A stretch of DNA of 64,000 nt from Psammoneis japonica (lineage: Eukaryota): the NCBI GenBank assembly GCA_008632985.1, contig QPGO01000053.1:372001-436000 (forward strand), given 5' to 3'. Positions 1 to 64,000 of the stretch are shown here, in pieces. The number at the start of each line of letters is the position of its first letter. The first letter of the stretch is position 1. Both the position numbers and the translations under genes were made by a program. The notes under the pieces are model-generated. The model made no database searches. It was not told the origin of the DNA and worked only from the letters and a program-made list of their open reading frames with translations.

Positions 1-14
1 TGTTGCAGCATTGA

Positions 15-140
15 CAGATTGGGAATCTCATGCAGTGCTCATTAAATGACACTCCAAGAAACATGTCAATGCGGCCAAGCTCTTCCACAACCTTCTTCCA
101 ATGAACAAGATTGCTCATTGGCAGTGAAATCCAGTCTGCA
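15..140 (+). mobile_element. Fragment of a non-LTR (LINE) retrotransposon, same family as 58600-62050
   Basis: Translates DWESHAVLIK*HSKKHVNAAKLFHNLLPMNKIAHW, matching IDLNVHATLVQQHSKKHLSTVKLIDELLPANKITHQ in ORF 59097..60101. Confidence 0.55.
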
Positions 141-990
141 CCGCAAGATGAGAGCTCAGTTTTTCGATGAGCAATTTATGACTGCATTCATGTGCATTTA
201 AACAACATTGATTTTGCTGTTGAATGCGACACAAACAATGTTTTGTCAAATCATTTGAACACAAGTGCTGCTCTCAATGGTTTTTAAATGGAACATTCAT
301 CGATCAACAAGTTTCAGATGATGTGAGAAGAAGCGAAGCTCAGCGCACACAATGGCATCAACTTTGGACCCCTTTTCACTGATCTGTTGGCACAAATGAC
401 TGACACACTTGCGTGAGTCAACCCTGTGGAGGAATCACACATGGAAATGAAATGGTCCCCAGAGGCAAATCGGCGGCAAATTAAGGCTCAATTGTTGGCT
501 GCAACAAGCATTTTCATTGTTGTGATGGATGACACAGACCACATTAAATGCTGCGGTCCTTGTCATGACATTCAATTTTCCACAAGGTTGAAAAAAGCAT
601 GCCATCATGGCAACTGAAATCCATGGCCATTTTGGCTGTTTGTTGGCTCGAATGTGCTCTGTTTGTTTTGCTTAAAAGCCATCAACATGATCAACGCAAC
701 AAAACACATTTGATGTTGAACAAAGCATTGAGCACACATTTTTTGTGCAAAAACGGGCATGAGCATGCCACCTCAAGTCTGGAACAAGTCCCAAGCCACC
801 TGAGGAAGTTGCCAGGATGCAAGGAATCTCAACTCACACCAAAATCAGGTGCTGGTGCTAAATCAAGCCACCCACCAGAGAGCAATTTTGGCAAATGTGT
901 CTCTGTCCATGTTTGGGGCACTTGTCCATTTGCCAAGCCAATTGTTTTCTGGAGATGTCAAAGAAAACAAGCCAAGAGCCAAGACCCAGG

Positions 991-3289
991 CATGGACACG
1001 CAATTGAACAACAGGGCAGGCAGGGCCACGCAGGCTCTGCCGCAGGCTTCAACAATTCGTCCTCGTTCAATCAGCGCAGGACCAGTTGCTGGCCGGCCTC
1101 CCATTTCCAGTGTGATTGTACATCGACTGCGGGGACTTCGAGTTTTTGTGTGCTAAATTTCACGGGGCGGAGCTTTTTCAACGCATCGATCCAAATCTGC
1201 ACCACGCACCGTGTTGCATCTTTTCAAAAATCAACATCCATTGGTGCACGTTCTAAGGTGTGTCACAATGGCACATGTCCACTTTGTCTTGCTCCTCTTG
1301 TTCTTGCCAATGTTGTCTTGATCTGCTGTTCTCTTCTTTGATGCATGCTCTTTTGTCACTTGTTCAGATTTGACCATGAGCTCCGTTCTGAACGCTGCTT
1401 TTGCACTCCCCTTCGCTCTGTGATCTGTGGTTTGCTTTCTGTGTTTTTGGCACTCGACTTTGGCTCAGGCATGGACAACCTTTTTCACAAGATTCTTCCA
1501 CGTGCACTTCAGCGATGCAATGGTCAATCGTTTGCTGCTGTTCTCTTGGGCTGTTTTCAAGAAGGAGCGTCGCAAAGCCTCGTCTCCCATTGCCTTCTCC
1601 ATGCAGAAGTCAAGAAAATCATTGCCACGACGTTCAAAAGCTTTTGCGACACAGCACCCCCGCATCTGATGCAACAGTGTCTTTGCAACTGTAAAATGAG
1701 GCTTGGAAACCAAGGCAAGCCAACCCATGTTTCGACTTTGTTCTCCTCGTGAATGACAGTTGCTCATGTGATCGTCGTCCAATGTCGCTTTGTTGTGAAA
1801 GATTCTCATGCTGTCTAAGAATTCTGTCATGTCTTCAAGGGCTTCAATGGATCTCCATTTTCTGCCACCGTGAAAGCTTCTTCCGAAGAGAAAATGTCGC
1901 CCAACCAAAGAATCGAATGACCTTGCCGTTTGCGTCATCCTTCTTTGGCCATGCATTGGCAAAGTCTTTCTTCTGCATGCTTCGTTTGGGTGCCGAGAAA
2001 TCAGCCATTGACCCCCTCACCCACACCAACAGATGCTGAGAAAGAGCCAAGACCAACTGGGCAATGCTTGCCCTGGCTTCCCTCATTGAGTTTGGCAGTG
2101 GAAGAATCCGAGATCTGAGGCGCTTGTCGGGGTCTTGCTTCCATGGCCCGTGCCAATTTTCCATTTGTTTTCCTTCTGTCCACCTGCAGCTCTTGCATTT
2201 TCTGGTCTTTGCCTTCTGGGGACAGGAGCGAGTTTCTCACATGGCCATTTGGCGCCATCCTGTCTGGGTTTGCCTCTTTGGCCATCAAGTGATGTTGGTG
2301 AGATGTCAGCTTTTTAGAACACATGTCGCAGTGCACGAAACCGTCGCTGCTTTCGCGAGAACGCATTTTGTAATGCAAGCAGTCTGTTGAGTCGGCGCCG
2401 AAGCCACGGCATGGATGCAGCAACACTCTCTTGTTTTCAGGTGCAGAGTGGCATCTAATTGGACCAAACTCATTCCACACATGCTGCAAAATCTTGAAAG
2501 CATGGACAGCATCGGGGCTGTTGATGCCATTCCCAGCAAACTGCAAGCGCACACATTCTCGTAGCTCCTCGGCCGACATGCATGGGGGATCAAGAGAGTC
2601 TCCATCTGTGGGGCAATTGAGACTTTCTGCCTCAGGATTCATCAAAGCATGCAGCTCACTGTTGGTCACTTGCTCAGCAGGCTCTGCCTGTGGTGCAGTT
2701 AAGTGCAAGGCAACGACATTCCGACTGGCAGCAGCATTTTGTAAATCTGTCGACGACAAAGCTGCATTTGCTTCAGCAGTTTCTAATGTCACCTTGTGCT
2801 GCTCCAAAGCTGTTTCTGCCTCGTCTTTGTCAAATTCTTCCATTGAAGATTTCTTTGGATCCTCCACTGTTGTTGCATCATTTTTGTCATTCTGACATTG
2901 AACTGATTGTCGATGACGCGATGACGGCATTGCGTCGTACTTGGCTTTGTCATGCTGGTGGGTTGGAGCTTGCACAAACATGTTTGAATTCTTTTCAGAA
3001 TGGCTGCAATCTTCAGCCATTGAGCAGTCACATGATTCAGCTTCCGCTTTGTCAATCTCCACCCAGAACTTGCGCGTTACTTTGCCATCTTCGTCGCAGT
3101 TGCGTCGCATGAGCGCGGGGGGCCAGCGACGAGCCAACACTTTGTGCTCTTCCCTGCAATCTGCGCACAACAATTCGAAGTCTCCGCAGAGGCTGTGGGA
3201 ACACACTGGAAGTGGGAGGCCGGCCGGCAACCAATCCAATGCTGATTGAACACGGCCTGTCTATCCTGTTGTTTAATTGTGTGTTCATG
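991..3289 (-). mobile_element. Degenerate TIR DNA transposon (2.3 kb) with an 8-bp target-site duplication
   Basis: Left end catggacacgcaattgaacaacagg (991) matches the reverse complement of the right end, catgaacacacaattaaacaacagg (3289). Inverted similarity continues for about 130-160 bp. gacccagg sits at both 983-990 and 3290-3297. Internal minus-strand ORF remnants (2001..3239, 1465..1962) have no recognisable catalytic motif. Confidence 0.65.
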
Positions 3290-3359
3290 GACCCAGGCAT
3301 GTGTGTCATGAGGGTCATGTGAGCAACTTCACAAGGACTTGGGGACAAACAAGCTGAAG

Positions 3360-4270
3360 CTCAACCAATGCAAAATTGAACAGTCAATGGCAAACAGCAC
3401 ACTGTCATTTTCATGTGGATGACCTGTTGTTGAGCCACAAGAATCCAAAGGTTGCTGACAAATTCCTGAGCTCACAGAAGCCATGACAAAGTTGTCACAA
3501 CTCAAGGAAAGAGGCACAACCACAGCATGGGGGGGGGGGGGGGTTGACCCCAGACTCCAATGAGGAGAAAGGCAAGGTGCTGAAAGTCAACATGACCAAC
3601 TGTGTTCACAAGATGATTGGCCAGCTCCCAGACCAGATCAAGATTGCCAGTGCTGCCAAGAAACCAGCCAGAGAGAACCCACTTGACACCAGTGGCATGA
3701 GATTGCCAACCAATGAAGCACAGACATTGCACATCATGTTGCCAAGGGACCAGTCATGTCCAAAAGAGGCTGCACAGATGTGCACCCTTCTGTTGCAGCA
3801 TTGTGCACAAAAGCTGGGGAGCCAACCAACAAGGGCCAGGGAAAGCCAGTCAGGTGCATCAAGCATCCTGTGCTGGATGCAAAATGAAGTCATTGTGCTG
3901 AGTGCAAAGGACCTCCAAGTTGTCAAGTGGCATGTGAACACATGCCATTTGTGGTGCACCCAGACTTCAAGAGCCATGCAGGAGGTGTCATGACCACAAG
4001 AAATGGAGCAGTGCACCAGCAATGTCAAAGTGCCAGAAGAAGCCAAAACAGCCAAAGCAGCAGCACATGGGTTGAGTTCACAGGAGTTGAGACAGTGTGA
4101 TGGCCATGTTCCTGCAAATGAAGTTGTTCATGGAAGACCAAGGGCGTCCAATTGACAAGAGTGTCCTTCATCAAGACAACAAGAGTGCCATTCCATTGGA
4201 AATGAGTGGGTGCAAGAGTGCTGGAAAATGGTTCAGAGCACTCAACATTTGGCATTTCTTTGTCACCAAA
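3360..4270 (+). mobile_element. Ty1/Copia RT-RNase H remnant
   Basis: VNGKQHTVIFHVDDLLLSHKNPKV (RT), HPDFKSHAGG and KLFMEDQGRPIDKSVLHQDNKSAIPLEMSG..ALNIWHFFVT (Copia RNase H; family consensus LYQDNKSAI..NIRYFF). Broken by frameshifts. Confidence 0.8.
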
Positions 4271-5074
4271 TGCAGATTCTTGCAAAAACGCAGTTGTGCT
4301 TTTGATGCTTGCACGGTCAAAAAAATGTTCAACATTTTGTGTGATGCAGAAGGGCACTCCATTGCTGCACATCACAGCCCGCGCTGCAGCCCAGAGCTGC
4401 AAGGTTGCACTCAGAGATGGGAGTTTGTGAGTGGCTGCAGATGACCTGCTGCTGCAACACAGTGGGAAGATCATTTCAGCAAGACAGGCATTCAAGGCAA
4501 ACAGTGCAGGTGTTGCCAGGGAGCTGATGTGCTGTGAAGATTGTGCTTTCTCATGTGCAGCTCTGTGATGTTTTGGGTCATTTAGATTGAGCACACTCTG
4601 CAGACAAAACAAGGCATGACCAAGCTCCTAATGCCCTGAGCAGGCTCACCTGACAACATGCCAACAAAACCAGGCACATTGAAACAAGGCCCAAAATCCT
4701 TAGCTGAGTTGGTCTCATGCTCTAGCTAGAGTGCAGTTTTCACTGTGGGTGACAACTCTCCCTGAAGCGGTTCGAGTGCGTTGAAAAGAGTCTCACTTGG
4801 CAGGTAGAACTTGTTCTTTCTTGTGCACAAATGGACTGAGTAACAACAGTCCTAGAAACATCAACACAAGAAATCACATCCTAAATATTCAACTCGGTTT
4901 TTACTGCACGACACGATTAAAATTAGGAGTAGCTGCTTTCCAATCAACCAATCACCTGCTTCAACTCGTCGCAGTCTCCTCAGAAGGCAGGACCCAAATC
5001 ACACGGACCCACACGCTATTGCTAAAATATGTATCATACAAACAAATCATCGCCGTCTTCGCGGAGGTCCTTAG

Positions 5075-6859
5075 TTAGTAGGGTGGACGAGGGCAGTAAC
5101 GGTGTCGACATTTCTTGTGTGCATCAAAGATGCCGCCATACAAAGCACATTGTGCAATGTTAACATTAAAGCAGGAAGAACCCACGCAACAGCTTCCTAT
5201 CTGTGAACACATGTCTGTGAAACAAGAGAGACCATCACCTATGTACACACCATCGTTCTTCTCACAGAATGGACGGTCGATCACGGCACATCCGCCAGAG
5301 GGAAGGCAGCAACGGCCCACACCACCAGGTGAGGGCGTGGGAGAGGGTGTTGGGCTCGGGGTAGGGCTCGGGGTAGGCTCAGGCTGCAGAGGACACCCTG
5401 GCTTGCCATTGGGCATTATGCAATGGCTTCCGTCGCCAAAGAAGATACCACCTTTGCCATCCACTTTGTCGCATACAGACTTGAACGTCTCAACGCACTG
5501 GTAGAACTTGTCACAGCAAGCTCCAAAAGGTTCCTTGGTTGGACTTGGCGTAGGACTCGAAGGGCAAGTATCTTTTTCACACGGTGTTCCAAAGCCCTGG
5601 AATTGGCCGTAGAGCCTTTTGCGGCACCGGTTTCTTGTCTGATTAGGGACACATCTCCCAGAGGGCAGGCAGCATGCGCCCAACACAGTACAGCGGCCGC
5701 GGTAGCAGGTCTGAAAAAGCAAAAACACGCACGAGGGATGATTAGAATCAGAATCATTCTTGCAACATCTAAATTCCAACAATTCTTACCGTGTCATCAC
5801 CCTGGTATATTCCATTCAAGGTTGCACACTGGCCCTCCGTGACACGCCTGATGCAACGTTTCCTGTTAAAGAAAAGCGAAGTGTACAAACGGTTGTGGTA
5901 AAAAGGACTTGTTTTCTTAGAACGAACGATTCATGCACTAAAATCGAGCCCTACCTGAACTTCAAGCAGCATGCTCCAGTTCCAACCGGTGTGGGACTCG
6001 GTGTGGGACTTGGGGTCGGCGGACGGTGGCAAACATCACACGTGGTACTGATGCCCGCATAATAGCCTGCATGGTTGAATGGGACAGAATAAAAACGCAG
6101 GAGATGAGTAAAGTGATTAAATGTGGATGAATTACACGCCTTGGTTAAAGGTGGGAGGTGAGCAAAGTTAGTAAATGTGCAGGAATTGATCGTGGACGCA
6201 CCCTTCTTCAAAGCGCAAAAAGCAGGCCTCGAGAGGAAACATTTTCCATCTGGTTCGGGGTCACAGCAGGCCCCAAACGCTTTCGGGCAGTTGTTGGCAC
6301 GGCATTTGGTTCCGTCTCCAACGTAGTGGCCTCCTCGGCCTTCGCAATTCCCTTGACGGATCACCGTACATTTGGGTGGGTGCGCATTTGCTTCGCAACA
6401 CGCCCCCCTGGGAGGGTATGGAATCTGAAGCACATTCGAGCGACGTGGAAGGTGTTAGAAAGCATAACTGGTAATAAAACGCCTCAGGAATTCATGAATT
6501 CGCTTACCGCTAGGATCCTCTCGGACTCGTCCTTAGCGTCATCGACTTCTTCGTTCAAGACATTCTTTGTTAGTAGAAAGTCGAAAGACAGAGTAGATAT
6601 TGTGAGAAAGGAACCAAAAGACAATGCTACCTCGATAGTTCACACTTGCCCTGTTACTTACCTTTGAAGAGGTATCTTCCTTCGGTCCGAACTCCGTTGA
6701 CACGTCTAGGAAGAACGCCGGATTGCAACGCAATTTGTGAGCCGTTCTGATCCACTACTAGTCGACGCTTCCGCCAGTCAACACCGAACGCTACGTACCT
6801 GCCGCCTCACAGAGAGCAAAAGCAAGCAAGAGAGACAGTCCCTTGCAAACGAATTTCAT
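5075..6859 (-). CDS. Secreted cysteine-rich repeat protein, about 401 aa, 7 exons, seven GxCC modules with (PT/PS)n linkers
   Basis: Phase-consistent GT-AG model: 6859-6799, 6705-6662, 6564-6508, 6424-6202, 6066-5955, 5862-5790, 5710-5075. Signal peptide MKFVCKGLSLLLAFALCEA. Repeated GACC..C..C..GG.(Y/F).GDG..C motif. Confidence 0.85.
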
Positions 6860-7567
6860 TATGGCATCAACTAACCTATCAAGTTAGACTTCCTTTTGTT
6901 TTGTGAGATTCGAGTGAGCCATCAGGACATCACCTCACAATGCAAAATGCGTAGCGGGTCGTAGACTTTGTACGAGAAAGAATCTTATCTGTGTTCACAG
7001 CATGGCCCTTGCCCCGCACGAGTACGTACTACTGTACTTGTACATAAAATATAAAATACATACACTGTACGGTATGTCATTCAAAGCAGGACCTATGCAC
7101 TTGATTGCCCTAAATGTTGTTGACACCAGATGTCCGGTCACTATGCTAAATGATGCATTTGTTTAACAACGCAGAATCTAAAGATTTAAGCATTCTTAAA
7201 ATAGCATAAGTCATTGTCTCCTTTGTCTGGTCTTAAGTATCTAGTATCTTTCCATATAAGTGTTGTGCACAATTAAGGATCACATGATATAGCTTGTTAA
7301 GCGAAGTGGTCGTCGGACTTTTCGGTGTGTGTCAGATCAATAATTATAATATTTTGTGAAACGAGAAGCCTTCGTTTTGCAAGAGGATGATCATAACGAT
7401 GTGATTCCAATCACAACTTTTAACTTATATTCAAAGAGGCACATTGCCACTCTGCTCTGTTTCTATTTCACAACTTTCATCGACATCTTTTGCAACAACC
7501 TCGTTGGAATCAAATTCTCAAACAACGCTAAAGACCGGTAGAAGGCTGCTGATTTAAAAAAATAGCT

Positions 7568-8593
7568 ATGCGTACCGGTATCACATTTCTGGTGGCTTTG
7601 CTGCTCCTGGCAGAAACGTGCAGAGGAAAGCGGTTTTCTGTTGTGCTCTTCCCTGAAGGTCAACCCCGAAAAGCACAGCTTTTAAAGAGGATTTCACAAG
7701 AAGCTTTTGAACTCCTCTCCCAACAATGTTCTCTCACTCTATTACAAATCGTGGACTACAAAAATATTTGCATGAGTGTAAATGGCGTATCAGTGATTGC
7801 AAGGGGGAGTGCGACTTGCAAAAGCATCAAAACCATCTCCAAGGACTGCGACAATGTCGCTCTTGCTTCTGGTGTGAAATCAGAAGCCACAGCTGGAGGT
7901 GGCGACTTCGACGAGTGTCTTAACGCAACGGCAATTGGTGATTACAACACAGCAACAGCTCTCGACATTGAAGCAACTGCCTTGGCAATTGAAGGTACCA
8001 ACAATACTGCTTTGGCTAGTGGAATTGATGCCTATGCCCTAGCCAGCAAGGGAAATGGAAACGTTGCCCTTGCCACGGACCACCAAGCAGATGCTAGGGC
8101 GTATTCTGGAGACTACAATAATGCATACGTTGGTGCTGAAACTGCCAGGGCATATGCCTATGGAGGCAGCCACAACAGCGCCAAGGCGTCTGGCACTTGC
8201 TGCATGAGTGCCTATGCATACAATGGTGACCACAACAAAGCTCAAGCTACCGGTACTGATGCTACGGCCCGTGCCTACGATGGCAACTACAACTCTGCGT
8301 CTGCAAGCACCGAGGCAAAAGCGGAAGCATTTGGAGGTGATTTTAATACTGCCATTTCTTTTCGAAGTTATGCAGAGTCCAAGGCATCCTTTGGAAAACG
8401 CAACAATGCCACAGCAAGCGGGATGGATGCAAAAGCAATCGCAGGAGGCAAGGACAAGGAGAACCTTGTCAACCGTGCTAAAGCCATTGCATTGGGTGGC
8501 AACTGTATTTCCGAAGCTAGAAAAACACGCCAATGCGTTTGTTTTGAGGAAGTAAAGGACAAATGCATCAGCTGCCGTGATCAAGAATGCTGA
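7568..8593 (+). CDS. Putative secreted Ala/Gly/Asn-rich repeat protein (about 19-aa repeats, beta-solenoid-like)
   Basis: 341-aa ORF with a hydrophobic N-terminus. About 9 copies of GxxNxAxAxxxxAxAxA. Cys clusters flank the repeat region. Confidence 0.8.
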   Translation: MRTGITFLVALLLLAETCRGKRFSVVLFPEGQPRKAQLLKRISQEAFELLSQQCSLTLLQIVDYKNICMSVNGVSVIARGSATCKSIKTISKDCDNVALASGVKSEATAGGGDFDECLNATAIGDYNTATALDIEATALAIEGTNNTALASGIDAYALASKGNGNVALATDHQADARAYSGDYNNAYVGAETARAYAYGGSHNSAKASGTCCMSAYAYNGDHNKAQATGTDATARAYDGNYNSASASTEAKAEAFGGDFNTAISFRSYAESKASFGKRNNATASGMDAKAIAGGKDKENLVNRAKAIALGGNCISEARKTRQCVCFEEVKDKCISCRDQEC

Positions 8594-11090
8594 GAGCCTT
8601 GTCGATCTCAGTAGAATACACAGCAATCTAGTTCTCATGTACACATCCGCAATGAATAGAGTATCTTCAATCTCGCACAGATGCTGGTACCTTGGATTCG
8701 TTAGGGGGTATTTAGAAATCATAGCACTACACCGCGTCTCAGTAACTCTGTTGTCGTGCCTCTTTTGCACACAGGTGTTCAATGCAGAGAGAAAAAATAA
8801 AACAAGATAACAGTCATGTTGTGTCGGTTGTAGATACCGTATGTGCCGAAGGGCTGAAGCGTGTGATGAAGTTTTTCCCTCCAGCAGGGGCGGTGTTGTT
8901 TACATTGACAAGGTGCAGAGTAAGTGTGTACCTGGTGTAGCTAGTACGTCATATCACCAACGAAGACCACATGCAGGAGGAAGAAGAGGAAGAGAACCAT
9001 CAAAATGCCTTCGATGAAGGATTTATCAGAGATGCCATTGTGAAATCGGATCGGTTCGATGGAGAGGAAAACAAAATAGACGAGGAGCCATTGCAAAAAA
9101 TAGAAGACGTCAGAGGACGACACACAGGAGAGCCCAGACAAGATGCAAGAGGAAGAGGAACAGGATGAAGACCCAACACGAGAACGAGTGATCTTCTCTC
9201 TGTCTCTTTCTCTACGTTCGGTAGGGCCCAACTCGGTAGGGAATCTCGCTAGACCTATCACCTGGCTCTCTCTAGTAGAGTAGCTAGCTACGGTAGCTAT
9301 TAGGCTCTAGCTCTAGAGACCAGTAGCTACTATGCTACCGGTAGCTAGTCCTCTTTCTGTCGGTGAACAGTTTAGTAGCCGTCCAACAAGTCTAATTTTC
9401 ATTGCTAAACTTTACTTTTTATCCTAGATGTGTTTAAAAAAACATTGACATGGTAGGCTAGTAGGACCATCAGTTTCAGCAAAGCTCGTCCTTTTCGTGT
9501 CGCCGAGTAGTGGCAGTATCTTTGATCACTTTGCCCGTCAACAGAACGGCGCAACCCTCACGGCTATGACGGAAAATAAAAGCAACTATTATTCCATCAA
9601 CAACTAGAGACTGTAGATCATGAAATCTTGACTTATCGATCATTATTGTTAGCACGTCTCAACCAACCCATGAAATTGTAGACATTGTTTTGTTACCCCT
9701 CGTCTCGACGACACGAACACACACCACTGCACCGCCGCGTCTTGTGCGCTCTCCAGTTGTTGTTTTTAGTATTGATATGGATCATCATCTTCCATTAGAG
9801 CCAACAATGGCAATCGTCCTTGCTCTTCTCGCTTCAAAGCATGACTACTATCGCTGATTTTGTAGTAATCATTGGATGGATGCACAACATTGCACAACAA
9901 AAGCCGTGGATTCTTATTCTTCTTTTTCTTCATCTTGGCATTGGCAAGGGTAGGAAAGGCTCCCTTTTTATCCTTTTGCCTCTTGGATTGCAAAGACATG
10001 GAAAAGGATCCCTCTTGCAGCTTGAACTGTTATTGTTGTTCTTGGACATGTTTTATAAACTATGAGTGAAAATAGTGGAACTGTAGTTTGTAACAAAAGA
10101 GACAAAGCGAGAGACACGTAAGTGAGATTATCGCTGTTTCTGAAATGACCAAAGTGAGAGATTTATCTCTTTAGAACACGACACACCGCCCGTCTGTTGC
10201 AAAGGACCAATACAAAACGAAACTATCAATCGACATGATGGGACTTGCAAAAAGAAACAAATCTACAGGTAGACACAAGTCACGTCGTTTGGGAACGAGA
10301 CAATGATTGATCCTTTTCACTACGCCGTCCACGCATCACGAAAAAAGCAATAGACAATAACGCAACACTTGCAAACAAGTAGTAGACTCACATTGTGGTT
10401 TCGTCTCTTTGAGAAAACACACAAGATGGACGTGCTATTCGTCAATAATGTTGTTGTTGTTGCTATAGATGATGTGTGCCTCCGCAATGGATAACAGTCG
10501 TAATACACATCAACACGCTGGTGGGATCGAAAACAAGCACGTTTTCTTTTTTGTTTCGCTTGTTGAAATCGTGACCATCGCCATTTCGCGTTCTATCTTC
10601 CATACAGCGGCCAAATATATGTTTAACGAATGAATGTCTGCGATAAAAACTTACATATGGAATTATTCGTGTTATTAAAACTTCATGAGAATAATTGGCA
10701 TATGAAACCTAATATTCCAATAATACTTGTTTGGCGATAGTCGGAAATGTCCAGGTTCTGACGGTGTGTCGGCCAGGCGGTCTGGCGAGAATCAATTTGA
10801 ATAAAAACCTTCATTTTTATATACAACATAAAAAGTATCTTTCCATCTATCCAATCATATATCTCCATTTGGAATTTCCGTTATTCGAACAATTCTACTT
10901 CATTAAAATACATATATATTAATTACGTAAATATCCAACACAACATACCAATTTCTACGAACATAACAAGCGAAGCCTGACGTGGAGTATCACAAGAGTG
11001 TACAAGCTCCCAATGCCACAAAAAGACCGTTGGTTGCTTCTCGTGCAATCTAGGCCACGACACTTCTACTACTTCAGCAGCGACAGCACC

Positions 11091-14946: not shown

Positions 14947-15015
14947 TACAATACAAGAACAAATCCTTCTAAATCACAATATTTCCTCCTAAAATTCCAA
15001 CAATCCTTCCCTTTC

Positions 15016-52900: not shown

Positions 52901-53150
52901 CGTGTGCACAAGTTCGGAATTGAATTCTTGAAGACTGTTGAGGAAGCCACAGAGAAGACAACAGAACGGGGACCAACTTTTGGTTTGAGGCCATAAGAAA
53001 GGAAATGTGGAACGTCATGCCTGTGCTCAAGTTCCGTGACGATGACACTGTCCTGGTCGGGCACAAGCATGTTGATTGTCACATGGTCTTTGATGTCAAG
53101 AGCACCTTCCAATGCAAAGCAAGGTTTGTGGCCGGAGGCCATCAAACCAA
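49970..53150 (+). mobile_element. Copia (CoDi-like) gag-PR-IN and start of RT, heavily degenerate
   Basis: Protease LDSCTDTCAVGSNF, integrase (LVSDG..TPCSPWQN), TTMGWNLQVKWK..SWVPLQDLKESN..EPAFNWWV and CHMVFDVK..KARFVAGGH. Confidence 0.85.
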
Positions 53151-54953
53151 TCACAATGTCACAATGCACACTGCATGCAAGTGGCAGCGCCATCATCGAC
53201 CATGATGCCGTCGTCTTTCCTTTGAGCTAGGGCCCCACCCAAGAGAGATTGAATCGACTGGACGGTGCTGCAAAGTATGTAATTTGCATTGTTTTCGCTT
53301 TCGAGCTTGCTGTTACAGCACTGCGTATGCGCTCCGAAATTGTGTGTTTTTTGATGCCGGGCAGTTTGGTGCATTCAAATTTGAGTCGGTTTTTGTGCAA
53401 GCACGTGAGATTGCATCTCCGTTTCCTTTTTTTTCAACCAACAATCTCACCCGCACGTTTCTGTGATAGATTTGTTCTCTTTAGGACAATGCTGTGGGCT
53501 AAACAACCCACGATGATGCCAAAAAAGTAGATGGAAACCATTGCTCGTGGATTGCGCTGCTCTGGAATTCCTACAACAATTTTACGGGTGATTAGTAGTA
53601 ACACTACTTGGGCAATAATATCATGGAAGCGATCACTTTGTGTTGGCCTCGTGTTGGGGATAAAATTTTGAGAGTTTGGGGCTTGCGACATTTGATGCAA
53701 GAAATTTTTAAGGAGAAAGCACCGCACTCTTATAAGAGGAGATTCGCCCCGTATTTGAAAAAGTTTTGTCAAGATCCCATGGAAAGTTAGGTCACTGATG
53801 ATGCCAAACTGACTTTTTTTAAAATTGACTGTAGCTGTGTTATTACTGCTACGAAAAACCGGCGCAACAGACGGAGAAGAATTGGCAACTCAACGATTTG
53901 CTCGATGCCAGTCAAGTTGTCGTTTTTGTTTGCTCGCGCCAAGAAATTTAATCGCTTGTTGGCTGCGCAGCATTTGCATCCATGCCGATCTATTCCAGAA
54001 CAAGAAGTGCACCTCGAAATGCAAAAGAGTGCTGCTAGATTGAAGAGCTGGCGGGAATGGGGATGGGTAACGTAGGAGTGCTGGGAATGATTAGGGTGGT
54101 AGTGCCGGGATATTGAATTGGGTATTAGTAAAAGCCGGCAACTGGATTGAATTGACATACAAGTGGATACAAGGCAAAGAAACATGGTAGTAGCAGTGCA
54201 TGTATGTATGGGAAGCTACACTAGAGAAACAAGTATCAAGAACATAGAGAGACGGGGACGGGCAGTTTTTAAAGTAAAAGGTGACAAAGAAACGTAGGCT
54301 CTGCCTGCAAAGTGGACCCCCACTTTACACATTCAAGGGTAGGCGAATCTCATCAAGCTCTGCAAGGTAGAACACTGTATTTAAAATGTTACACAAACCA
54401 TTCCTAGAGTCGCTACGACGACATTCAAAAACCGTTCGACGCCGCGTGCCGATACCCCCGGCTGGACCATACGCGATTGCTACAAAAAGGTGTAATACCG
54501 GCTGGACCACACGATTGGTACATATATGCCAAGTCGCGTCTCTACGGAAAAATCCGACGTCTATCAAAGCATTCTGATCCAACGTAGAGGAAATTCTGGG
54601 TTGCTTCCCTGTGTGCTAAGAATATTTTGAGAAAGCTCGTGGTGAGCGTGTCGATCAGATGGAAAGAACTTCAGCTATCTTCCAATGTAAAAAACGGTAT
54701 CGCCGTCAAAAACAACTTTCCCATCCTATCCTAGACCCTGCTTTTTTCAATCAGCACACTTCTGTAGGAGGACTTGACGCCTCCGCTCCTTTCTGCAAAC
54801 AAAGTAGGCGACACATTCGTTGATCGACCGTGAACGCCGACAGGATCTATGTGGTCTTCCCCATTCCCCGCCGTCGAGAATATGATTCCTTAGCATTTAC
54901 TACCTGAGACTGATAAAAAAAGCTAGACCCCATATATGTGAGAAAATAAGAAA

Positions 54954-57479
54954 TCAGTCGTCACTTATTCTTACAACAGCATCTAGAGCATCCGACAAGT
55001 ATTTGGTGCGGTGTTTCCGACCAGATTTCATGGATGCGTCCTTTGCCGCCAGTTCGTCCCACTCCCAAAACGGCACTGACACAAGAAGGTAGTCCTCTAG
55101 TTTTGAAAGCTGGCGATGCTTGAGTATTGTGGATCCCGTCGGTGAACGATCAGCAAGAAAATGACTCGGTCCATCAACCTCGATGCCAACAAGTTTCTGG
55201 TCGTACTTCACAACTGCATCCAGGCTATATCCGATAGCAGTAATGACCTCTTCCTCTGGCAGGAGTCCCAGTTCAGAGAGCGTATCAGCGACATCCTTCT
55301 GAAGCTTGGATGGTTTCCCTTGCTCTTGCACAAACGCATTGCGACACTCATGGCATAAAGCTACATCGAATCGCGAGGGCATGTCGTGCTCTCGAAGCCA
55401 CAACACAACTTGATGGAGTTGGAGCATTCCATGACGGGAAAACAATGAAGCTTTTGAATTACAGATCTCGGCGTATTTGGCACCGAGTAAATCATCTGTA
55501 CAGTGGTCGCAAACCGCGTACGCCCAAACCATATTCGCAATCTCTTGAGGTTTGAACTTTTCCAGTTTCCGCATTGACACTTTGGCAATGGCATCAAAAA
55601 GCAACGGAGACGAGTGCCCAACGGTGGCACATGCCCAAACCGCATTGGCAAGGTTTTGCGGGTGGAACTTTTCAAGTTTCCGCATTGACACTTCGGCAAT
55701 GGCATCAAAAAGCAATTGAGATGAATGTCCAACGGTGGCAAATGCCCAAACCGTATTTGCAATATCTTGAGGCTTGAACTGTTCCAGTTTCCGCATTGAC
55801 ACTTTGGCAACGGCATCAAAAAGCAATGGAGACGAATGTCCAACGGTGGCAAATGCCCAAACCGCACTGGCAAGGGCTTGAGGCTTAAACTTTTCCAATT
55901 TCCGCATTGACACTTCGGCAATGGCATCAAAAAGCAACGGAGACGAGTGTCCAACGGTGGCAAATGCCCACACCATATTTGCAAGGCCTTGCGGGTTAAA
56001 CTTTTCCAGCACCCGCATTGACACTTTGGCAATGGCATCAAAAAGCAACGGAGACGAATGTCCAATGGTGGCACATGCCCAAACCGTATTTGCAATCTCT
56101 TGAGGCTTGAACTGTTCCAGTTTCTGCATTGACACTTTGGCAATGGCATTAAAAAGCAACGGAGACGAGTGTCCAACGGTGGCAAACCCCCAAACCACAT
56201 TCGCAAGGGCTTGCGGGTTAAACTTTTCCAATTTCCGCATGGACACTTCGGCAATGGCATCGAAAAGCAATGGAGACAAGTGTCCAACAGAGGCAAATGC
56301 CCACACCACATTTGCAAGGTCTTGCGGGTTGAACTTTTCCAGCATCCGCATTGACACTTCGGCAATGGCATCAAAAAGCAACGGAGACGAATGTCCAACG
56401 GTGGCAAATGCCCAGACCGCATTCTCAAGGTTTTGCGGGTTGAACTTTTCCAGTGTCTGCATTGACACTTGGGCAATGGCATCAAAAAGCAACGGAGACG
56501 AATGTCCAACGGTGGCAAATGCCCAAACCGCATTGGCAAGGGCTTGAGGCTTAAACCTTTCCAATTTCCGTGTGGACACTTCGGCAATGGCATCAAAAAG
56601 CAATGGAGACAAGTGTCCATCAGAGGCAAAAGCCCACACCACATTGCAAGGGCCTGGGGTGTGAACTCATCAAGTTTGGAAATTGATGCTTCAGCAATGG
56701 CATAAAAAGAAAAGGCGATGAGTGTCCAACGGTGGCATGTGCCCAGACCGCATTGGCAAGGCTTTGCGGACTGAAGAGGCTCATCTTTGGAACTGATGCC
56801 ATGGCGAGTTCATCGAAAAGCTGGGTTGAGGATTGTCCAGACTTTGCAAATGCCCACATGGTCATGGACAAACCCCTTGGAGAGAGACTGCCTTTTGCTG
56901 CATGCACTCGCCCTCCCAATTCATCCCAAATGGCTGTCCCAAACTTCAGCCTGCTCACGCTGGACATTTTTGCTAGAGAATGTGCAATCGAACCAACCGA
57001 GTCAGAAGCATCACAGTCCATCACTTTCATGGCACCTTGCAGCATGCGCTGCATCTCTTTTCCGCAGCTTGGCAGATTCACTCACTCAGTTCATTCCTTG
57101 GTGCGATTGCTGCAATGCGGTTCCAACAAAACGAAATGTCCTTTGGGCTCATTTTGTCGCTGTTCTTCTGGTGAATGTCAAGAACTCCAGAAACTCTTTT
57201 GATGTTTCTTGGGTTGGGTGATCTCCAATTTCGGTTGGCATTGCATTGCTTTTGTTCTGTTTGAGGCCCTCTTGCCCCTCTTGCATCACGCCTCATGGAA
57301 CGATTTCCATCACTCCTCCTGCCACCATCTTCACTTTGTTGGGTCATCATGAAATAAGGCGACGCATTTTCCCTCCAAAACGCCAAACAACTCGACTGAC
57401 AAACATGTCGATGAATCGGCACGCACCCAACAACACTGCACAGCGCCAACAGCAGCAACAGCTTTCTCATCCCAAACAT
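54954..57479 (-). pseudogene. RAP-domain protein with 37-aa helical (OPR/FASTK-like) repeats; frameshifted and partly hypermutated
   Basis: C-terminal RAP domain (SKLQKDV..GYSLD..IEVDGPSHF..TILKHRQL..VSVPFWEW). About 11 FxPQxLANxVWAFATVG repeats. N-terminal targeting-like sequence. Frameshifts near 56645, 56703 and 57080, which may be assembly errors. Confidence 0.8.
55530..56780 (-). repeat. 111-bp coding tandem repeat (about 11 units)
   Basis: aaaagcaa(c/t)ggagac-type anchor recurs every 111 bp (e.g. 55930, 56041, 56152, 56263, 56374). Confidence 0.92.
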
Positions 57480-58599
57480 GTGCCACGATCTTTGAAGTCT
57501 GCAAAAGCCATTGAGTCAAATTCTCTCATTTCTCTCTTGCAACACAATGATTGAGAATGGCAGCTTCAGCTTGTCAACCGCATCACTCAATGCAGTTTTT
57601 GATGTGCCTTGCATCGTTGTGGGTCGATTTCTCAACACAGAACTGGAACACCGAGCGATCGATCGATCAAGCAAAAGGTGATGGTGGTCTGTGCCTCTGC
57701 CGGTGCCCTGCGCAAGTGGGGGGTTGTTCGACGCCGGTTGCATCGCAGGTCTCCTGGTGAGTGGAAGCAGTGTGCAAGACTGCAAGCGCCAAGCAGAGCC
57801 GCAGCAGGCTTCAATTTCCGGTTTCTGTGAGCCTTGTTGCCAAGCTCATCCAACTGGACTTTGCTGGTCACAACAGGGATGAGTTGACTCTCAAGGTGTC
57901 AACCTGCCCAAGCTGAGCAAATTGCTTGTGGGGCCTGGCCTCTACATGCTGACAAATTCACAGCAGAGAAAGAGCCCTCGTCACCTGCAGATGCCAGGGC
58001 CCTGGAGGGGCTTGATGATGCAAAGGTTGCAACCACTGTTTGAATGATGCAACAGCCCAATGATGATGGGCTGCACACTGTGCTCTCAGCAGCTTTTGGC
58101 TCCAGAGCCAAGCCACGTTGCACGCCCCAGTGCTGTTGTTTGTAATGCAGACAGTGGTGTTGGAGGCAGTGAAGGGTGCAGGCCATTGGCATTGAGACTT
58201 GCCAAAGTTGACATGTGCTCCCATTGTGCTGGGGATTGCAGAGACACCCACACACCAGTCTCCAGCACCTGCGCACATTGCAGTGCCCAGGACAACAGAA
58301 AACACCGTGCACAACGGGCAGCGCAACAACAGGCTCAACACATCCTGTGGGAGTGACTGAGTGAGTGATTGCACAGTGTCAAAATGCAGTGCATTTGGGA
58401 CAACATTGCACTGCCAGCCAACTCAAAAAAAACAGATCTGCATTTAAAGTGCTGTCACTCCCTTGCCAGCTGAGCCGGCACCGGCAGACCCACACTTCCA
58501 CTGCACCGTCAAGTGCGGCAGAAGCTTGCTTGGATCAGCCAGAATGTGGGTGCCACCAAGAGCCAACACCCCTCCAAATTGAGTGAGTGCTGCAAAGTG

Positions 58600-61500
58600 C
58601 TTCATGCTTTGCCTTCTTGAGGCCGCTGTCTTTCAGGCATGGTCTGTGAAGCAGAGTGGGACATGTGGTCATCGACTGAATCTAAGAGCACGTCCCTGTC
58701 TTTGGCAAGATGTTCCTGTTGTTTGTTTCACACAGCCGCAAGTTCAGCTTCCACCTGTTGGTGCTGAGATGATTGCCTCGACTCTGCATCATGGCCGTGA
58801 ACCTCTCAATTGTGTTCTTCCCAAAGTTCCCACCAGAGCTTCCAAATGAAAGTTCCTGTCTGCACTCCCCAAACCAGAGGCAGACGATTTTCCCTGTGAC
58901 ACTTCTCCAGCAGGCCCGTCTTGCAAAGGTGCATCTCCTGAGAAACATTTCAAAGGGTGGAACACCTGCTGACAAACACTTGTCACTGTCCTGTTTCTGA
59001 TGGGGCTCTCCACAGCACTCGCAACATTGGGGCAGCATCTGACTCGTGCATCATCTCACCTCGGAACCATGCTTCAATGGATGTCAACAACAAATCTCAA
59101 AGAGGTGGCATTGTGTCAATTTTGTCACAGTGTTTGCACAGACCTTGTGAGAATTTACAACGCCAGGCCTCATTCTCTGGACAATGTAGAATGTCGTGAT
59201 TGCGATCTTCCATTGGGCTTTTGCATGCAAGACAATGATGTGGCCACACTGGATTGCATTGATGAGTGATTTTGTTTGCAGGAAGAAGTTCATCGATGAG
59301 TTTGACAGTGGACAAGTGTTTCTTGGAGTGCTGTTGGACAAGTGTTGCATGAACATTCAAGTCAATCTTCTCCATGGTCGATTCATCCCAGTCGTTCCGT
59401 TCCCAAACACATGCAAGGAGAGCGGGAGCTGTGGTGGCGTGTCGAACAGTGGATTTCAGTCCTGCAGCAACAGTTCCATCTGCAAGGCTCAGGTGCAATT
59501 GGCAGCAGGGAAATGGGATCACCACCTTTGTGTCAGATTCATGTTGACCTTGATGCCATCCTGCCAATTTGTCAGCATGCACATTTGCTTGAGTGTCAAG
59601 TGGGAGAGTTTCAACTGGAGAGTGTCTGTCCTGGTGCCCTTTCACCCACTCGATTGGCGGAGCCTGACCTGGGGAGGAGGAGTTGAGAACTTGTTTGGTG
59701 GCTGTGAGCATTTGATGTGTTTCATTGATGATGTCCCAGTTGGATGACAGTGCATTGGCATTGTGCTGACACAAATGAAAATCTCTGTCAGACCACTCTT
59801 GTGCCGAAGGGTCAATTGAAGGGCAAGCATGAGACAGTCTGGAAAGCACCCAAACCAAGGCCTTGTTGTCACACCAGTTGTCAACCCCTTCATGCAATGG
59901 CATCTTGCAGAACTCAAGCAGACAAAAAACAAACCATGCAAGGGACAAGAAACCATGAGCCTTGGTGCGATGAGATGACGGCATTTGACCAAATGCCAGA
60001 CCAGCGCAGTCCACCAAGGTCTGCCCTTGAATGTGACAGTCCATCCAAAGGTTGCATTCTGATGAACAACTGAACTGTTGCTGCCTGTCACAAGGTGACA
60101 TGATGCAAAATGATCCACCATTTCTTAGAGAGAGGTGTGAAATTTGATGGCAGAGAAGAGAGTTGACTCCCAGGAAGGCAAGGCATGCAGGCAGTCTGCA
60201 AAAAGGTCAGGCAAGGGAGTGCTTGTTTCCACCAAGAGTTTTGGGCAATGAGGCACATGTTTCCATCGTTGATCATGGGTGGTGACCATCTTGTCTGGGA
60301 ATGATGAGTCAAAGGGGGAGGGAACAGTCTTGGTCTGATGCAGCAACATCGTTGCTGTGTCCTGGACCAAAAACACATCAAAATGGTTGGAGATCAAATG
60401 TGCAAGTGCGATTCTTCTGGAGACCAGCATGCAGAGGATTGCATCCTCATCTTAGAAGGGGGAGCCAGCCAGTCACCCAAGGGAGCCTTCAGGCAAACTG
60501 AGTCTTGACAACACAACAACCCACACAAACGCATCCAGGGACCCCATGCCCGATGGCAAGACTTGGTCTGTTGTGCATTGTTGAGAGCGCTGACACTGCT
60601 GAGGTGCACAGGATCACCATGGGCTTTGGACTGTCAAGGAAGCACCCATTGGCCAGAGTGACATCCGAGATGGTGAGGACCTGAAGATGCAAGTGGCAAC
60701 AGCCAATCCACCTGATCTCTCGAGAAGAAAATTCTTGCGACTCCAGGGCAATGTCCATTGAAAACTGATCATTGACTCATTGCAGAAGGAGGACTCCATC
60801 TTGGGTCAATGCAGTGCTGCCTCCGACACAATGCAGAAAGGACCAAACTGACAAAAACCACAGTGACTTGCCACATGGATGGGGAGTGCTGATGTCTCTG
60901 AGGAAGCCAACCCCCGCGCACCCCAGGAGAAGCTGATTCCATGCAATGGCAATGTGCACTGCTGCGTGTGGTTGATCATCCTGCATGAGATGCTGTGCTC
61001 CATGGGAGTGTTTTAGAAGCTGTTGCATTTGAGCCACACCCTGCTCAACATCAAGAGATTTAAATCCTCCACCACCAAGAGATTGCGGGCCACACAGGAT
61101 CAGATGCTTGGTGTTTCAATTGCAGCCACATTTGGCAAAGACAACTTGCATCACACGTTGCTGAATCTACAACAACACTTTGGAGGCAAAGTGAGAACTG
61201 GTGAGAACAAAAGACATCGATGGCAGATGTCACGAGTGACAGTGTTGCCATGATTTGGTGCGATTGAGTGGCACAGCCCTGATGAACAACACTTTTCCAT
61301 CACTCTTGGTTTGGAGAACTTGTTGCTGTTTCTTTAAAGTCCCTGCCGGGGAAGGGTGATGTCCCAGAGTTTTGTGGGGAGCACAGGCAGACAACTGTTT
61401 GCTGCATCTAGATGCAGATTGAATGGATGGAGACTTGGTTCACCAAATTCAGAGAAATCTCACTCAATGGCTGGTGTGAAAGGAGCACTTGGGAAGTTCT

Positions 61501-62050
61501 AATTTGTGCCCACTTGTGTGGAGCAAATTGCACCAGGTCTTCTGCAGAAGGTCGAGGCAATGCCCGGAAGTCATTTGCTTGTTTTGACGTGTTGTTGACA
61601 TGTCCTTGAGTGCAGATGTTGAGCTGATGGGACCTGTCTGGTGATTCAAAAAGCACTCCATTGGCCTTGAAGTCAAAGATGTCAAACAGAAGACTGCAGA
61701 GGTCACTCCAGCAAAGCAGGGAATTGCCGCTGCCTTGGCCAGTGCCATGGATGGGGTGGTCTGTGCCATGAGAACACGAGACTCCATGGAGAGGCCCAAC
61801 AAGGTCAGCAGCCAATGCCAAGCAAGATGGACAGTGGAAATCGCACTGTCGCCACAGCCGAAGGTTTGTTCCACACCCAAACCAACTGACATGATCACCA
61901 TGAGAACTGGGAGATTCCTGTCATGGCACAAGGTGCAGTCATCATTGCTTGTGATTGACATCTTGTCAGAAGTCCTTGAGATCTCCAACATGAGAACTTC
62001 CAGGAATGCGGGAGTCTGAGCACACAAAAAGGCCCATGTGCTGCATGTGC
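58600..62050 (-). mobile_element. Non-LTR retrotransposon (LINE with RT and RNase H), degenerate
   Basis: NDDCTLCHDR (DxxxCYDR), HGTGQGSGNS (YGxGQGS), GHVNNT (YVDD), RNase H WVKGHQD..NVHADKLA, zinc knuckle CLACK..DILHC and C-terminal WELWEEHN*EVHG. Confidence 0.85.
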
Positions 62051-62096
62051 CTGGGTCAAACAGCCGATGTTGTTCCATGTGTTGCGTTGGGGCCCT

Positions 62097-63983
62097 CGAC
62101 CCAAAGAATCAACCTGCTCCAGTGTGGTGTCATGTGATGGCATCAGGACAGCATTTGCCATTGCTGCTCTCAATGATCTGGAGGTCTTAAGCGCTGATGT
62201 GCAGAGCACCCACATGAACGTGCACACTGAAGAAAAGTGTCACACTGCTGCTGGCATGGAATTTGGGAAGCACAATGAAGGAAGGCCAGCGATCAATGTC
62301 TGAGCCTTGCATGGTCTCAAGTCATCAGGTGCACAATTTTGAGAACATGTGGCAGCCACTTTGCATGACACTGGTTTTGAGTCATGCAAGGCTGATCCAG
62401 ATGTCTGGATGAGGGCTGCAGCCAAGCCGGATGGCTTCAAGCACTGGAAACATGCACTTGTCCATGCAGATGATTTGTTGTGCATCTCCCATGATGCCAA
62501 AAGGTTGTGGATTACATGAGCTCTGGGTGCACATTGAAGGATGGAAGTGTCTGCAAACTGGAAGAGTGTCTGGGCACCCAGATCAGAAAGTGCCAGTTGT
62601 CTGATGTGGATGGCAAGACACACTGGACCATGTCCTCTGACTTGCACGTTAAAAGGGCACTGGTTGATGTTGAGCTGGAGCTCAAGAGGACAGACAGGCA
62701 CCTTCCAACAAAAGCATCAACACCCTTGAGCTCAGGACACACAGGCATGAACTGGATGGCTGACCAGAGTTGAGTGCCAAAGTGGCCAACTGCTGCCAAG
62801 GCCTTGTTGGTGTGCTCCGATGGACAGTTGAACTTGGATGAGTTGACATCTTTGTTGCCATCTCACTCATGTCCTCCTGCCTTGCAGCACCATGAGTTGG
62901 ACACCTGGATGAGGCACTCCATGTCTTTGCATGCTTGAAGGCTCACTCTGAGTCTTTGCCAGTGTTCTGCTTTTGACAAGAGTCGGTTTGCCAAGTGCAA
63001 CTGGGAAGAAGGTTGCCCTGGCATGGCTGAACCACTGCAGTCAAACATGCCAGAGACATGTGGGAATGGGTCAGCCGCTGTTTTGTCAATGCCGATCATG
63101 CCGGATGCCGTGTGATGTGCAGGTCTCACACTGGGATCTTGACATTCATCCAGCAAGTGCCCATCTTGCACTGCTCTAAACAGCAGAACACCACAGAGTC
63201 CTCTGCTTTTGGGTCTGAGTTTGTTGCAATGAAGACTTTGGTGGAGCAGATTGAAGCTTTGTGGAACAAGCTTTGGATGCTTGGAATTCCCATGAATGGG
63301 GCCACTGACATCTTTTGTGACAATGAAGCTGTCTTCAAGAACTCAACCAGGCCAGAGCCCACATTGAAGAAAAAGCATGATGCAATTGCCTGTCACAGGA
63401 CTCTTGAGGCACAAGCCGCAGGAATTTTGTGCATTGCTTGGGACGACAGATGCACAAATCTTGCGGATGTGCTGACCAAGTTGTCACCTGGACTGCAGCT
63501 CTGGGAGATCACATCACAAGTCATGTTTTGTGGTGAGTTCCAAAATGGGACAAACTGAACAGATTCACCACTTGGGTGTGGTTTTCCCTCCCCCAAAATT
63601 AAAACATCACCCTGGAACAGTGCAGCATCAGGTTGCATTTGTCTGTTAATCTGGCTCAAGCAGAGCCAGTGTCAGTTCGAGGAGACTGAGCAAATGCTGA
63701 CACACTGTCATGGATGTGGGCAGTTGTTTGCCACTGGCAATTGGCCCACTGTTGCTGCTCAATTGGTGGCCCCAGTTGCACAATCTCTCACAACTCTAGA
63801 ACCTGTTGATGCTGTTTCAACACTCTGTCTTGTCTGTCACCCAATTCTTGGCTGTCATGATGGCATTCATTCATGGTTTTGATGACTTTGAAATGGTGGA
63901 ACACTTGAGGGTTGCGCGCTGGAGTTTTTGACCCCCAGACCCATTTCAGTGCATGCCCACATGTCTGTGGAATGTGCCAAAAT
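62097..63983 (+). mobile_element. Copia RT-RNase H remnant plus tail (second copy of 47775-49461, extending further 5')
   Basis: PKESTCSSVVSCDGIRTAFAIAALNDLEVLSADVQ..EEKCHT..EFG..ALHGLKSSGA, then near-identity to 47775-49461. Confidence 0.88.
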
Positions 63984-64000
63984 GCCAACGGTCCAAATAA

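Follow-up and report, generated by a model that had tools for sequence, protein, structure and literature searches.

We analysed a 64-kb window of Psammoneis japonica DNA (assembly GCA_008632985.1, contig QPGO01000053.1, positions 372,001 to 436,000 of the forward strand), the term window denoting this whole stretch of 64,000 nucleotides, in which islands of ordinary genes alternate with blocks of mobile DNA that have lost most of their TpA dinucleotides (hereafter TA). This pattern was probably left by a chromosomal hypermutation of transposon domains, restricted to such domains and converting TpA to TpG or CpA, of the same kind as a process described in Bigelowiella natans. Observed/expected dinucleotide ratios (O/E) were determined in 1-kb windows and for the following regions of this single 64-kb window.

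1-4700: block 1, element type unassigned; TA O/E 0.083, CG O/E 0.41; no Pfam family in any of its 20 scanned open reading frames (ORFs).
5001-23000: gene island, internal control; TA O/E 0.607, CG O/E 0.994; V-ATPase B, a cupin gene and a PITH gene (Pfam).
10923-12611, plus strand: V-ATPase B gene (Pfam).
24400-31060: Copia element region; TA O/E 0.209, CG O/E 0.931.
31400-39200: block 2b, element type unassigned; TA O/E 0.082, CG O/E 0.313.
39300-41400, minus strand: gene island, control, with the sulfatase gene 39422-41254 (Pfam Sulfatase); TA O/E 0.542.
41700-53200: block 3 as a whole; TA O/E 0.041, CG O/E 0.226, TG O/E 1.84, CA O/E 1.73.
53400-55300: gene island, control; TA O/E 0.694, CG O/E 0.920.
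56900-64000: block 4, including the second copy of a repeated element (62285-63984); TA O/E 0.054, CG O/E 0.281.

The whole window holds 1223 TA (O/E 0.29), with an excess of CA (1.48) and TG (1.50). An earlier sequence-only reading of this DNA had reported four transposon blocks nearly free of TpA, with none seen in 3301-4580, beside gene islands with normal TpA, and measurement bore out both statements: TA O/E is 0.04-0.21 in the blocks and 0.54-0.69 in the islands, and 3301-4580 lacks TA altogether, against an expectation of about 80. The longest run without TA extends over 1309 nt (3274-4583), while 50 mononucleotide shuffles gave runs of at most 170 nt. Across the blocks TG O/E amounts to 1.66-1.84 and CA O/E to 1.73-1.78, and the block borders are sharp within about 200 bp, with counts rising from about 0-1 to about 7-13 TA in one or two 200-nt steps. 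Within the window the depletion is confined to the blocks of mobile DNA; the islands are normal and their genes, encoding V-ATPase B, cupin, PITH, sulfatase and FAST/RAP repeat proteins (Pfam), are ordinary and intron-less.

The Pfam scan of the blocks comprised 150 of the 187 ORFs of at least 90 aa, the other 37 being 31 in the Copia region at 23.3-31.5 kb and 6 elsewhere; the two long pol-frame ORFs of the Copia region were covered by a separate Pfam scan. Seven of the 150 ORFs gave a match at E<=0.01 and two exceeded the gathering score, which no scanned ORF reached in three of the four blocks. A tblastn search with Copia and Gypsy homologues detected only the Copia element, two Gypsy copies and one weak Copia-like match at 63079-63480, and Gypsy-type RNase H/reverse transcriptase (RT) Pfam matches lie on the minus strand at 42995-43480, 46354-46677 and 46942-47493. 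Of the element types named in the sequence-only reading, Copia and Gypsy were thus recovered by Pfam and tblastn, whereas long interspersed nuclear elements and terminal inverted repeat elements were not found in the Pfam scan of the 150 block ORFs. The elements and repeats, including the long terminal repeats (LTRs) of Copia, are as follows.

23769-24060 and 24072-24363, plus strand: tandem pair of Copia 5' LTR copies (self-comparison).
24932-31060, plus strand: Copia polyprotein frame of about 2041 aa with one in-frame TGA (Pfam RVT_2).
31065-31373, plus strand: Copia 3' LTR (repeat comparison).
41489-41623, plus strand: repeat edge copy with TA and CG retained, 81-84% identical to the internal copy 44455-44583 (sequence reading).
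41687-43471, minus strand: Gypsy copy A, RNase H/RT remnants (Pfam RT_RNaseH 42995-43480, tblastn), with tyrosine (Tyr)>Cys changes and saturated TA loss.
44866-47636, minus strand: Gypsy copy B, RT and RNase H remnants (Pfam, tblastn), with saturated TA loss and CpG decay.
47761-49461, plus strand: unassigned element, 94% alike to its partner copy at 62285-63984 (copy-copy comparison).
55411-56709, minus strand: 111-nt tandem repeats of the FAST/RAP host gene, a 37-aa repeat (Pfam, repeat comparison).

The direction of change was read from conserved Tyr codons. The RT part of the Copia element (29360-31057) was aligned with 40 homologues of 52-60% identity, and a Tyr column was regarded as conserved if at least 80% of the homologues carry Tyr. 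None of the 12 conserved Tyr is kept in Copia RT (6 read Cys, 5 His and 1 Trp); retention is 69-100% in the other classes of conserved residue represented by 5 columns or more, and Asn is kept in 2 of 4 columns. The two Gypsy copies likewise keep 0 of 15 (6 Cys, 6 His, 1 Ala, 1 Trp and 1 Phe), so that in the pooled set none of 27 conserved Tyr survives and 23 have turned into Cys (12) or His (11), the two replacements that the sequence-only reading had named. The composition of the Copia polyprotein is 0.6% Tyr, 3.0% Cys and 4.3% His, and its YVDD motif reads HVND; TA is partly erased and CpG intact in this frame.

In the pooled polarised spectrum of 675 conserved codons the A>G changes are preceded by T in 44 cases, by A in 5, by C in 2 and by G in 2, so that 44 of 53 A:T>G:C changes lie in TpA, and the excess of TA>TG/CA over other A>G contexts amounts to 44 changes after T versus 9 after A, C or G. 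The G>A changes are preceded by C in 31 cases (CpG), by A in 10, by G in 4 and by T in none; 26 transversions and 42 multi-step changes were also counted, and among the polarised events of these 675 codons the reverse change TG>TA does not occur. Inside single elements Tyr>His, which requires T>C on the sense strand, is as common as Tyr>Cys. The domain-restricted, TpA-specific A:T>G:C process on both strands that had been proposed from the sequence thus accords with the mass balance given below, the Tyr fates and the polarised spectrum.

Several known processes were considered and rejected. Fungal repeat-induced point mutation (RIP) requires C>T changes that make TpA, while here TpA is destroyed and the polarised changes include 0 TG>TA. 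ADAR-type RNA editing fixed by retrotransposition would affect the sense strand only, and sense-strand editing is ruled out because both strands are mutated within single elements. Error-prone repair of the Pol-eta type (WA>WG), one of the candidates of the sequence-only reading, needs AA as well as TA contexts and finds no support in 5 A>G changes after A versus 44 after T. The more general claim of that reading held, namely that neither RIP, 5-methylcytosine (5mC) decay nor sense-strand RNA editing is responsible: TpA is lost, CpG is kept in Copia and both strands are mutated.

A second layer of change, absent from the earlier reading, is the depletion of CpG in the three older blocks (O/E 0.23-0.41), CpG being normal (0.93) in the young Copia element. 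Per kb, the islands contain 40-52 TA, 46-55 CG and 138-146 TG+CA, and the old blocks 2.8-5.5 TA, 13-24 CG and 215-223 TG+CA, which corresponds to a loss of about 40 TA and about 35 CG and a gain of about 78 TG+CA, TG and CA being raised about equally. Because the fraction of pyrimidine-purine steps is constant (0.23-0.245 throughout the window) and the books balance, the TA and CG losses represent transitions to TG and CA. In the Gypsy copies 11 of 26 conserved Arg are kept, the others including 4 stops, 4 Gln and 3 His, and judged from these codons the Arg losses are CpG decay. CpG-type changes, Arg>stop included, account for 31 of the polarised events; 5mC-type CpG decay explains the CpG loss only and not the TA loss. 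In the Copia element, the LTRs of which are about 97% alike and the frame of which is open bar one TGA, about two-thirds of TA are gone (O/E 0.21 versus a median of about 0.65 in relatives) with no CpG loss. As this young element is TA-poor yet CpG-intact, TA erasure is much faster than CpG decay or sets in earlier, and the two processes are therefore separable.

The LTRs and element copies also bear on the time of action. An alignment of 236 positions between one 5' LTR copy of Copia (copy 5b) and the 3' LTR shows 7 differences. Four of them hit one of the 14 positions forming part of a TA in at least one copy (binomial P 4e-4), and 2 affect CpG. Since the LTRs of one insertion start identical yet differ mainly at TA sites, the action is placed after integration. 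The copies of the tandem 5' LTR pair differ by 15 transitions and nothing else, and almost all of these changes are at steps derived from TA or CG. Between the copies at 47761-49461 and 62285-63984, which are 94% alike, there are 88 mismatches, 71 of them transitions, with 16 CA/TG doublets making up 32 mismatches; 6 CG are in common and 15 are half-decayed. By our own arithmetic a CpG-only model predicts about 5 CA/TG doublets versus the 16 seen, and the excess fits an independent resolution of TA to TG and to CA. On the strength of these copy comparisons we conclude that the process acts on integrated chromosomal DNA.

The Copia 5' LTR itself is tandemly duplicated, with two 292-nt copies that are 95% alike and 303 nt apart from start to start.

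The few TA that survive are distributed unevenly with respect to their flanks. With R denoting purine and Y pyrimidine, the counts in blocks versus islands are 4/291 for R_Y, 16/257 for R_R, 21/234 for Y_Y and 84/167 for Y_R (chi-square P 4e-34), and TTAA accounts for 36 of 99 surviving TA (counted without block 1). Scaled by length, survival is by our own arithmetic about 1% for R_Y, 4% for R_R, 6% for Y_Y and 36% for Y_R, which fits an additive two-strand model with A in T-A-Y (equivalent to T in R-T-A) mutated at about 5 times the rate of the other context. The Tyr codons give a corresponding picture: those after a pyrimidine became 10 Cys and 1 His, those after a purine 2 Cys and 10 His (Fisher P 6e-4). 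Thus TAY/RTA is the preferred target and YTAR, above all TTAA, resists.

At no codon position can TA>TG/CA yield a new stop, and TAA and TAG are turned into TGA, CAA, TGG or CAG. Because no stops are made, the elements keep long frames but lose every Tyr, even that of the YVDD motif in RT; this also accounts for the long block ORFs and for Tyr-free "proteins" in databases.

Such proteins were found among relatives of the Gypsy copies. Out of 150 Gypsy relatives in a library of 1.84 billion proteins, 12 contain less than 1.5% Tyr and six, of 162-699 aa, none at all. At four conserved Tyr columns the 12 Tyr-poor relatives read C 18, H 16, Y 7, F 4 and W 2 with one gap, versus Y 392, F 59, H 27 and C 8 in the 130 other aligned relatives. 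The 10 Tyr-poor relatives that were looked up come from NCBI, ENA, JGI/IMG and Logan. Tyr-free Gypsy-type ORFs with raised Cys and His in these public collections are P0262, P0355, P0312, P0247, P0248 and P0360, and from their composition such ORFs are probably hypermutated elements annotated as genes. The Copia family is not TpA- or Tyr-free by origin, a point on which the sequence-only reading depended: TA O/E lies at 0.42-0.92 in each of 80 Copia relatives from metagenomes, and the 40 Copia homologues contain 2.4-4.5% Tyr. A native TA-poor composition of the elements is thus excluded, as judged from these relatives.

Public reads were compared with the window through run X1, which derives from the same coded sample as runs X2 and X3, has its library type off record and possibly represents the assembly's own sample. 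X1 contains 78% of the sampled words of 39001-49000, and its k=31 contigs were compared with 36001-55300; X2 and X3 cover little or none of the transposon blocks. X1 contigs at single-copy depth (52-67) match the TA-free sequence with 0-6 differences per 0.8-2 kb, i.e. 0 in 43413-44189 (777 nt), 6 in 44456-46468, 3 in 46470-47321, 5 in 50580-52031 and 3 in 52002-52845, and a contig over the sulfatase island (39202-41580) has depth 56.8 and 1 difference. A miscall of modified bases is unlikely because single-copy depth and close agreement need accurate reads. Over 36.0-39.2 kb of block 2b the depth of 333-1777 denotes repeats. Low-copy stretches (depth 69-162), possibly old repeats themselves, are as TA-depleted as high-copy ones. 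Related copies in another 1878 contigs depart from the window mostly by transitions (A>G 155, G>A 146, C>T 147 and T>C 136), each transversion being seen 13-21 times. Furthermore, among the read contigs of 36001-55300, CpG-rich variants of a Gypsy junction (e.g. at depth 115) stand beside CpG-poorer ones (depth 33-59); therefore, less CpG-decayed copies are present elsewhere in the genome.

The limits of the mutated domains were visible at two places. In a repeat on the left margin of block 3, roughly the outermost 135 nt are unmutated, whereas the internal copy of this repeat (44455-44583) carries both CG>TG/CA and TA>TG/CA changes, and on this side of the block the mutated domain seems to start slightly inside the element edge. 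Next to block 4 lies the FAST/RAP host gene (54954-57081, minus strand) with at least 10 tandem units of 111 nt (37 aa). In the units nearest to the block, from 56188 upward, TA is gone except in TTAA and CpG is near normal; these units all have T|G at a site where 4 of 6 farther units have T|A. The frame of the gene is broken twice near 56.65 kb, and its 5' part may be a pseudogene. A partial TA loss in tandem repeats of a host gene touches on the question of repeat triggering: the mutated domain could be spreading into the gene, or the tandem repeats could themselves be targeted. A consensus-based spectrum of the 111-nt repeats was dropped, as indels gave 91 "transversions".

In a separate stretch inside block 2b (34000-38000) a strong purine excess was observed on the plus strand (GC skew +0.14 to +0.20, AT skew +0.10 to +0.24), which is not accounted for by TA or CpG changes.

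The best named matches of V-ATPase B are stramenopiles (MMETSP "Hetero..." 88%, Scytosiphon 86%, oomycetes 82-84% and Nannochloropsis 83%), and neither Bigelowiella nor a named diatom is among its top 120 matches. From these matches the host is probably a stramenopile and unlikely to be a chlorarachniophyte.

The sequence-only reading knew of no formal description of such a process, but one has since appeared as a 2026 preprint on B. natans (Mettrop et al., bioRxiv 10.64898/2026.01.13.699255), which reports a TpA>TpG/CpA hypermutation of integrated DNA of nucleocytoplasmic large DNA viruses (NCLDV) and virophages at about 1000-fold above background. There, 231 of 302 nuclear single-nucleotide mutations in the mutation-accumulation lines lie in integrated NCLDV and virophage regions, and 230 of the 231 are A>G or T>C, all on TpA per the authors; RT and DDE domains are over-represented among coding sequences poor in TpA, and the authors propose an ADAT2-like deaminase as agent (bioRxiv 10.64898/2026.01.13.699255). 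Full-text literature searches, subscription-only papers aside, turned up a TpA-erasing hypermutation in this preprint only. As in the window, the B. natans process affects TpA only, gives TpG and CpA, acts on both strands, is confined to foreign or mobile DNA and leaves a long-term footprint of TpA loss and CpA+TpG gain. The two cases differ in lineage (stramenopile-like here by the V-ATPase matches, chlorarachniophyte there), in targets (LTR retrotransposons versus integrated viruses) and in the extent of depletion (O/E 0.04-0.08, near saturation, versus a rho of 0.45 in the B. natans NCLDV region); CpG decay coincides with it here, and a de novo rate was measured in B. natans, whereas in the window LTR divergence is no more than indirect support for such a rate. 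The main text of the preprint, figures and supplements aside, gives no trinucleotide or flanking context and no mention of CpG, and the TAY/RTA preference and the TTAA resistance appear undescribed in it.

Among the longer-known systems, RIP resembles the present pattern as a dinucleotide-specific transition hypermutation of repeats that leaves long skewed stretches beside normal genes. It is opposite in being C>T, mostly CpA>TpA, so that it makes TpA, lowers GC and creates stops, whereas here TpA is destroyed, GC is slightly raised and new stops cannot arise. Repeat targeting by homology sensing and premeiotic timing are features of RIP that would be conjecture for the present process. Decay of CpG through 5mC is present in the old blocks as the second layer, with Arg>stop, Gln, His or Cys, but cannot remove TpA. 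ADAR hyper-editing of double-stranded RNA of repeats in animals shares the A>G change, the U or T before the edited A and the repeats as substrate; it differs in acting on RNA with an inherited footprint on the sense strand only, while both strands are equal here. Moreover, ADAR is an animal family and favours G after the edited A, TAR being the resistant context here. In the TadA/ADAT family U at -1 is typical, and the bacterial TadA motif UACG resembles the T-A-Y preference found here, whereas fungal ADAT-type mRNA editing favours A or G at +1, opposite to the Y seen here (PMC10027721). Natural DNA editing by the TadA/ADAT family has its basis in a few reports cited in the preprint (bioRxiv 10.64898/2026.01.13.699255).

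The favoured agent is a TadA/ADAT-like DNA adenine deaminase, and T precedes the mutated A in 44 of 53 changes, as expected of this family. In the model that we propose, transposon-filled chromosomal domains undergo A:T>G:C changes at either base of TpA, with both strands exposed, and the agent would be an adenine deaminase of this type acting on DNA in silenced chromatin, with the inosine product read as G. The process comes near saturation in old elements and 5mC-type decay of CpG to TpG/CpA is superimposed in the older blocks; the effect would be the inactivation of mobile elements.

The same footprint might instead originate from thymine chemistry, a TET/JBP-type hydroxylase marking the T of TpA as 5-hydroxymethyluracil (5hmU) or 5-formyluracil (5fU), which mispairs with G and gives T>C. 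As TA is self-complementary, T>C in R-T-A fits every result as A>G in T-A-Y does. According to one study, a dinoflagellate TET/JBP enzyme makes 5hmU mostly in repeats, where it silences transposons, and older work is quoted by which 5hmU replaces T preferentially in TA and TC (PMC11572971). On the other hand, no TC>CC signal was seen, though no look was aimed at TC>CC, and CpG-type and TA-type changes suffice for the mass balance. 5hmU is not known from stramenopiles, and the thymine route supposes that 5hmU or 5fU causes T>C at such a rate; we regard this route as rather unlikely. Considerably less probable is an editing before integration, in which retroelement RNA or cDNA would be deaminated during replication, as APOBEC does for C, with the chromosome itself untargeted. 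The identified elements are indeed LTR retrotransposons, the LTRs of Copia are somewhat less depleted than the internal part of the element (10 TA per kb), and the 94%-alike copies have most TG/CA states in common, so that part of the loss is older than their split. Such editing is at odds with the LTRs of one insertion, which differ mainly at TA sites, with the equal mutation of both strands within an element and with the extension of the TA-poor zone into the tandem repeats of the FAST/RAP gene; in addition, the B. natans mutations arise in chromosomal single-copy viral inserts during culture (bioRxiv 10.64898/2026.01.13.699255).

We give very little credence to a sequencing or assembly artefact, by which modified bases of silenced DNA would be miscalled as G or C. 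Modified bases do cause systematic nanopore miscalls, but the X1 k=31 contigs at depth 52-67 agree with the TA-free sequence (0 differences in 777 nt and 6 in 2015 nt), four other public sources contain Gypsy ORFs devoid of Tyr, and the Gypsy copies have the frameshifts, transversions and stops typical of genuine decay. It is just as hard to credit that the elements are natively TA-poor without any mutator, whether inherited from a TA-poor donor or selected against TA. Some of the TA loss seems older than the divergence of the copies, and the survival of TTAA and CTAG could reflect selection; however, every conserved Tyr is replaced, catalytic-motif positions included, which is incompatible with function, TA is normal in all 80 of the Copia relatives, and the LTR pairs diverge at TA sites.

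Several observations weigh against a chromosomal TpA hypermutation driven by an adenine deaminase, or narrow its basis. The scope is one window, to which genome-wide transposon association and deaminase gene content are external, and sequence does not separate adenine deamination from thymine modification. X1, with its library type off record, is possibly the same sample as the assembly. Most of the block sequence is without an assignable element type, 2 of 150 scanned ORFs passing the gathering score. By majority rule among three LTR copies, 2 apparent TG/CA>TA changes stand against 2 TA>TG; the former are attributed to parallel loss, reversal being the other possibility. At RTAY sites CA was found 10 times versus 2 where the additive model gives 1:1 (P 0.04), and RTAR events are few (3 in one count and 2 in another). 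Finally, the R_Y enrichment predicted for the CA/TG doublets between copies is absent (11 of the 49 with equal flanks); many of these doublets are probably CpG-derived.

To our knowledge, the DNA-level hypermutation defences known in eukaryotes before 2026 were C>T only (RIP, APOBEC and 5mC decay). That the same TA footprint recurs in a second, distant lineage, where its targets are ordinary LTR retrotransposons and depletion is near saturation, argues for a general genome-defence mechanism rather than a peculiarity of one alga and its viruses. The extended motif, the order of events relative to CpG decay and the stop-free consequence go beyond the preprint, at least as far as its text was available, where they were not found. 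The motif, with TAY/RTA preferred and TTAA resistant, is a requirement for any candidate enzyme, the search for which becomes a problem of comparative genomics. In practice, gene finders take hypermutated elements for genes, Tyr-free "proteins" of up to 699 aa being already public, and profile searches miss such elements. Furthermore, we put forward tentatively, as a possible though doubtful extension, that a DNA-level A-to-I (or T-oxidation) defence is an old trait common to lineages of the stramenopile-alveolate-rhizarian group (stramenopiles and rhizarians at least), marking silenced transposons and integrated viruses and erasing T-A-Y/R-T-A. If this is true, the trait would be a missense-only counterpart of RIP that leaves frames open, and a comparison of this genome with B. 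natans and with footprint-free relatives might reveal its enzyme.

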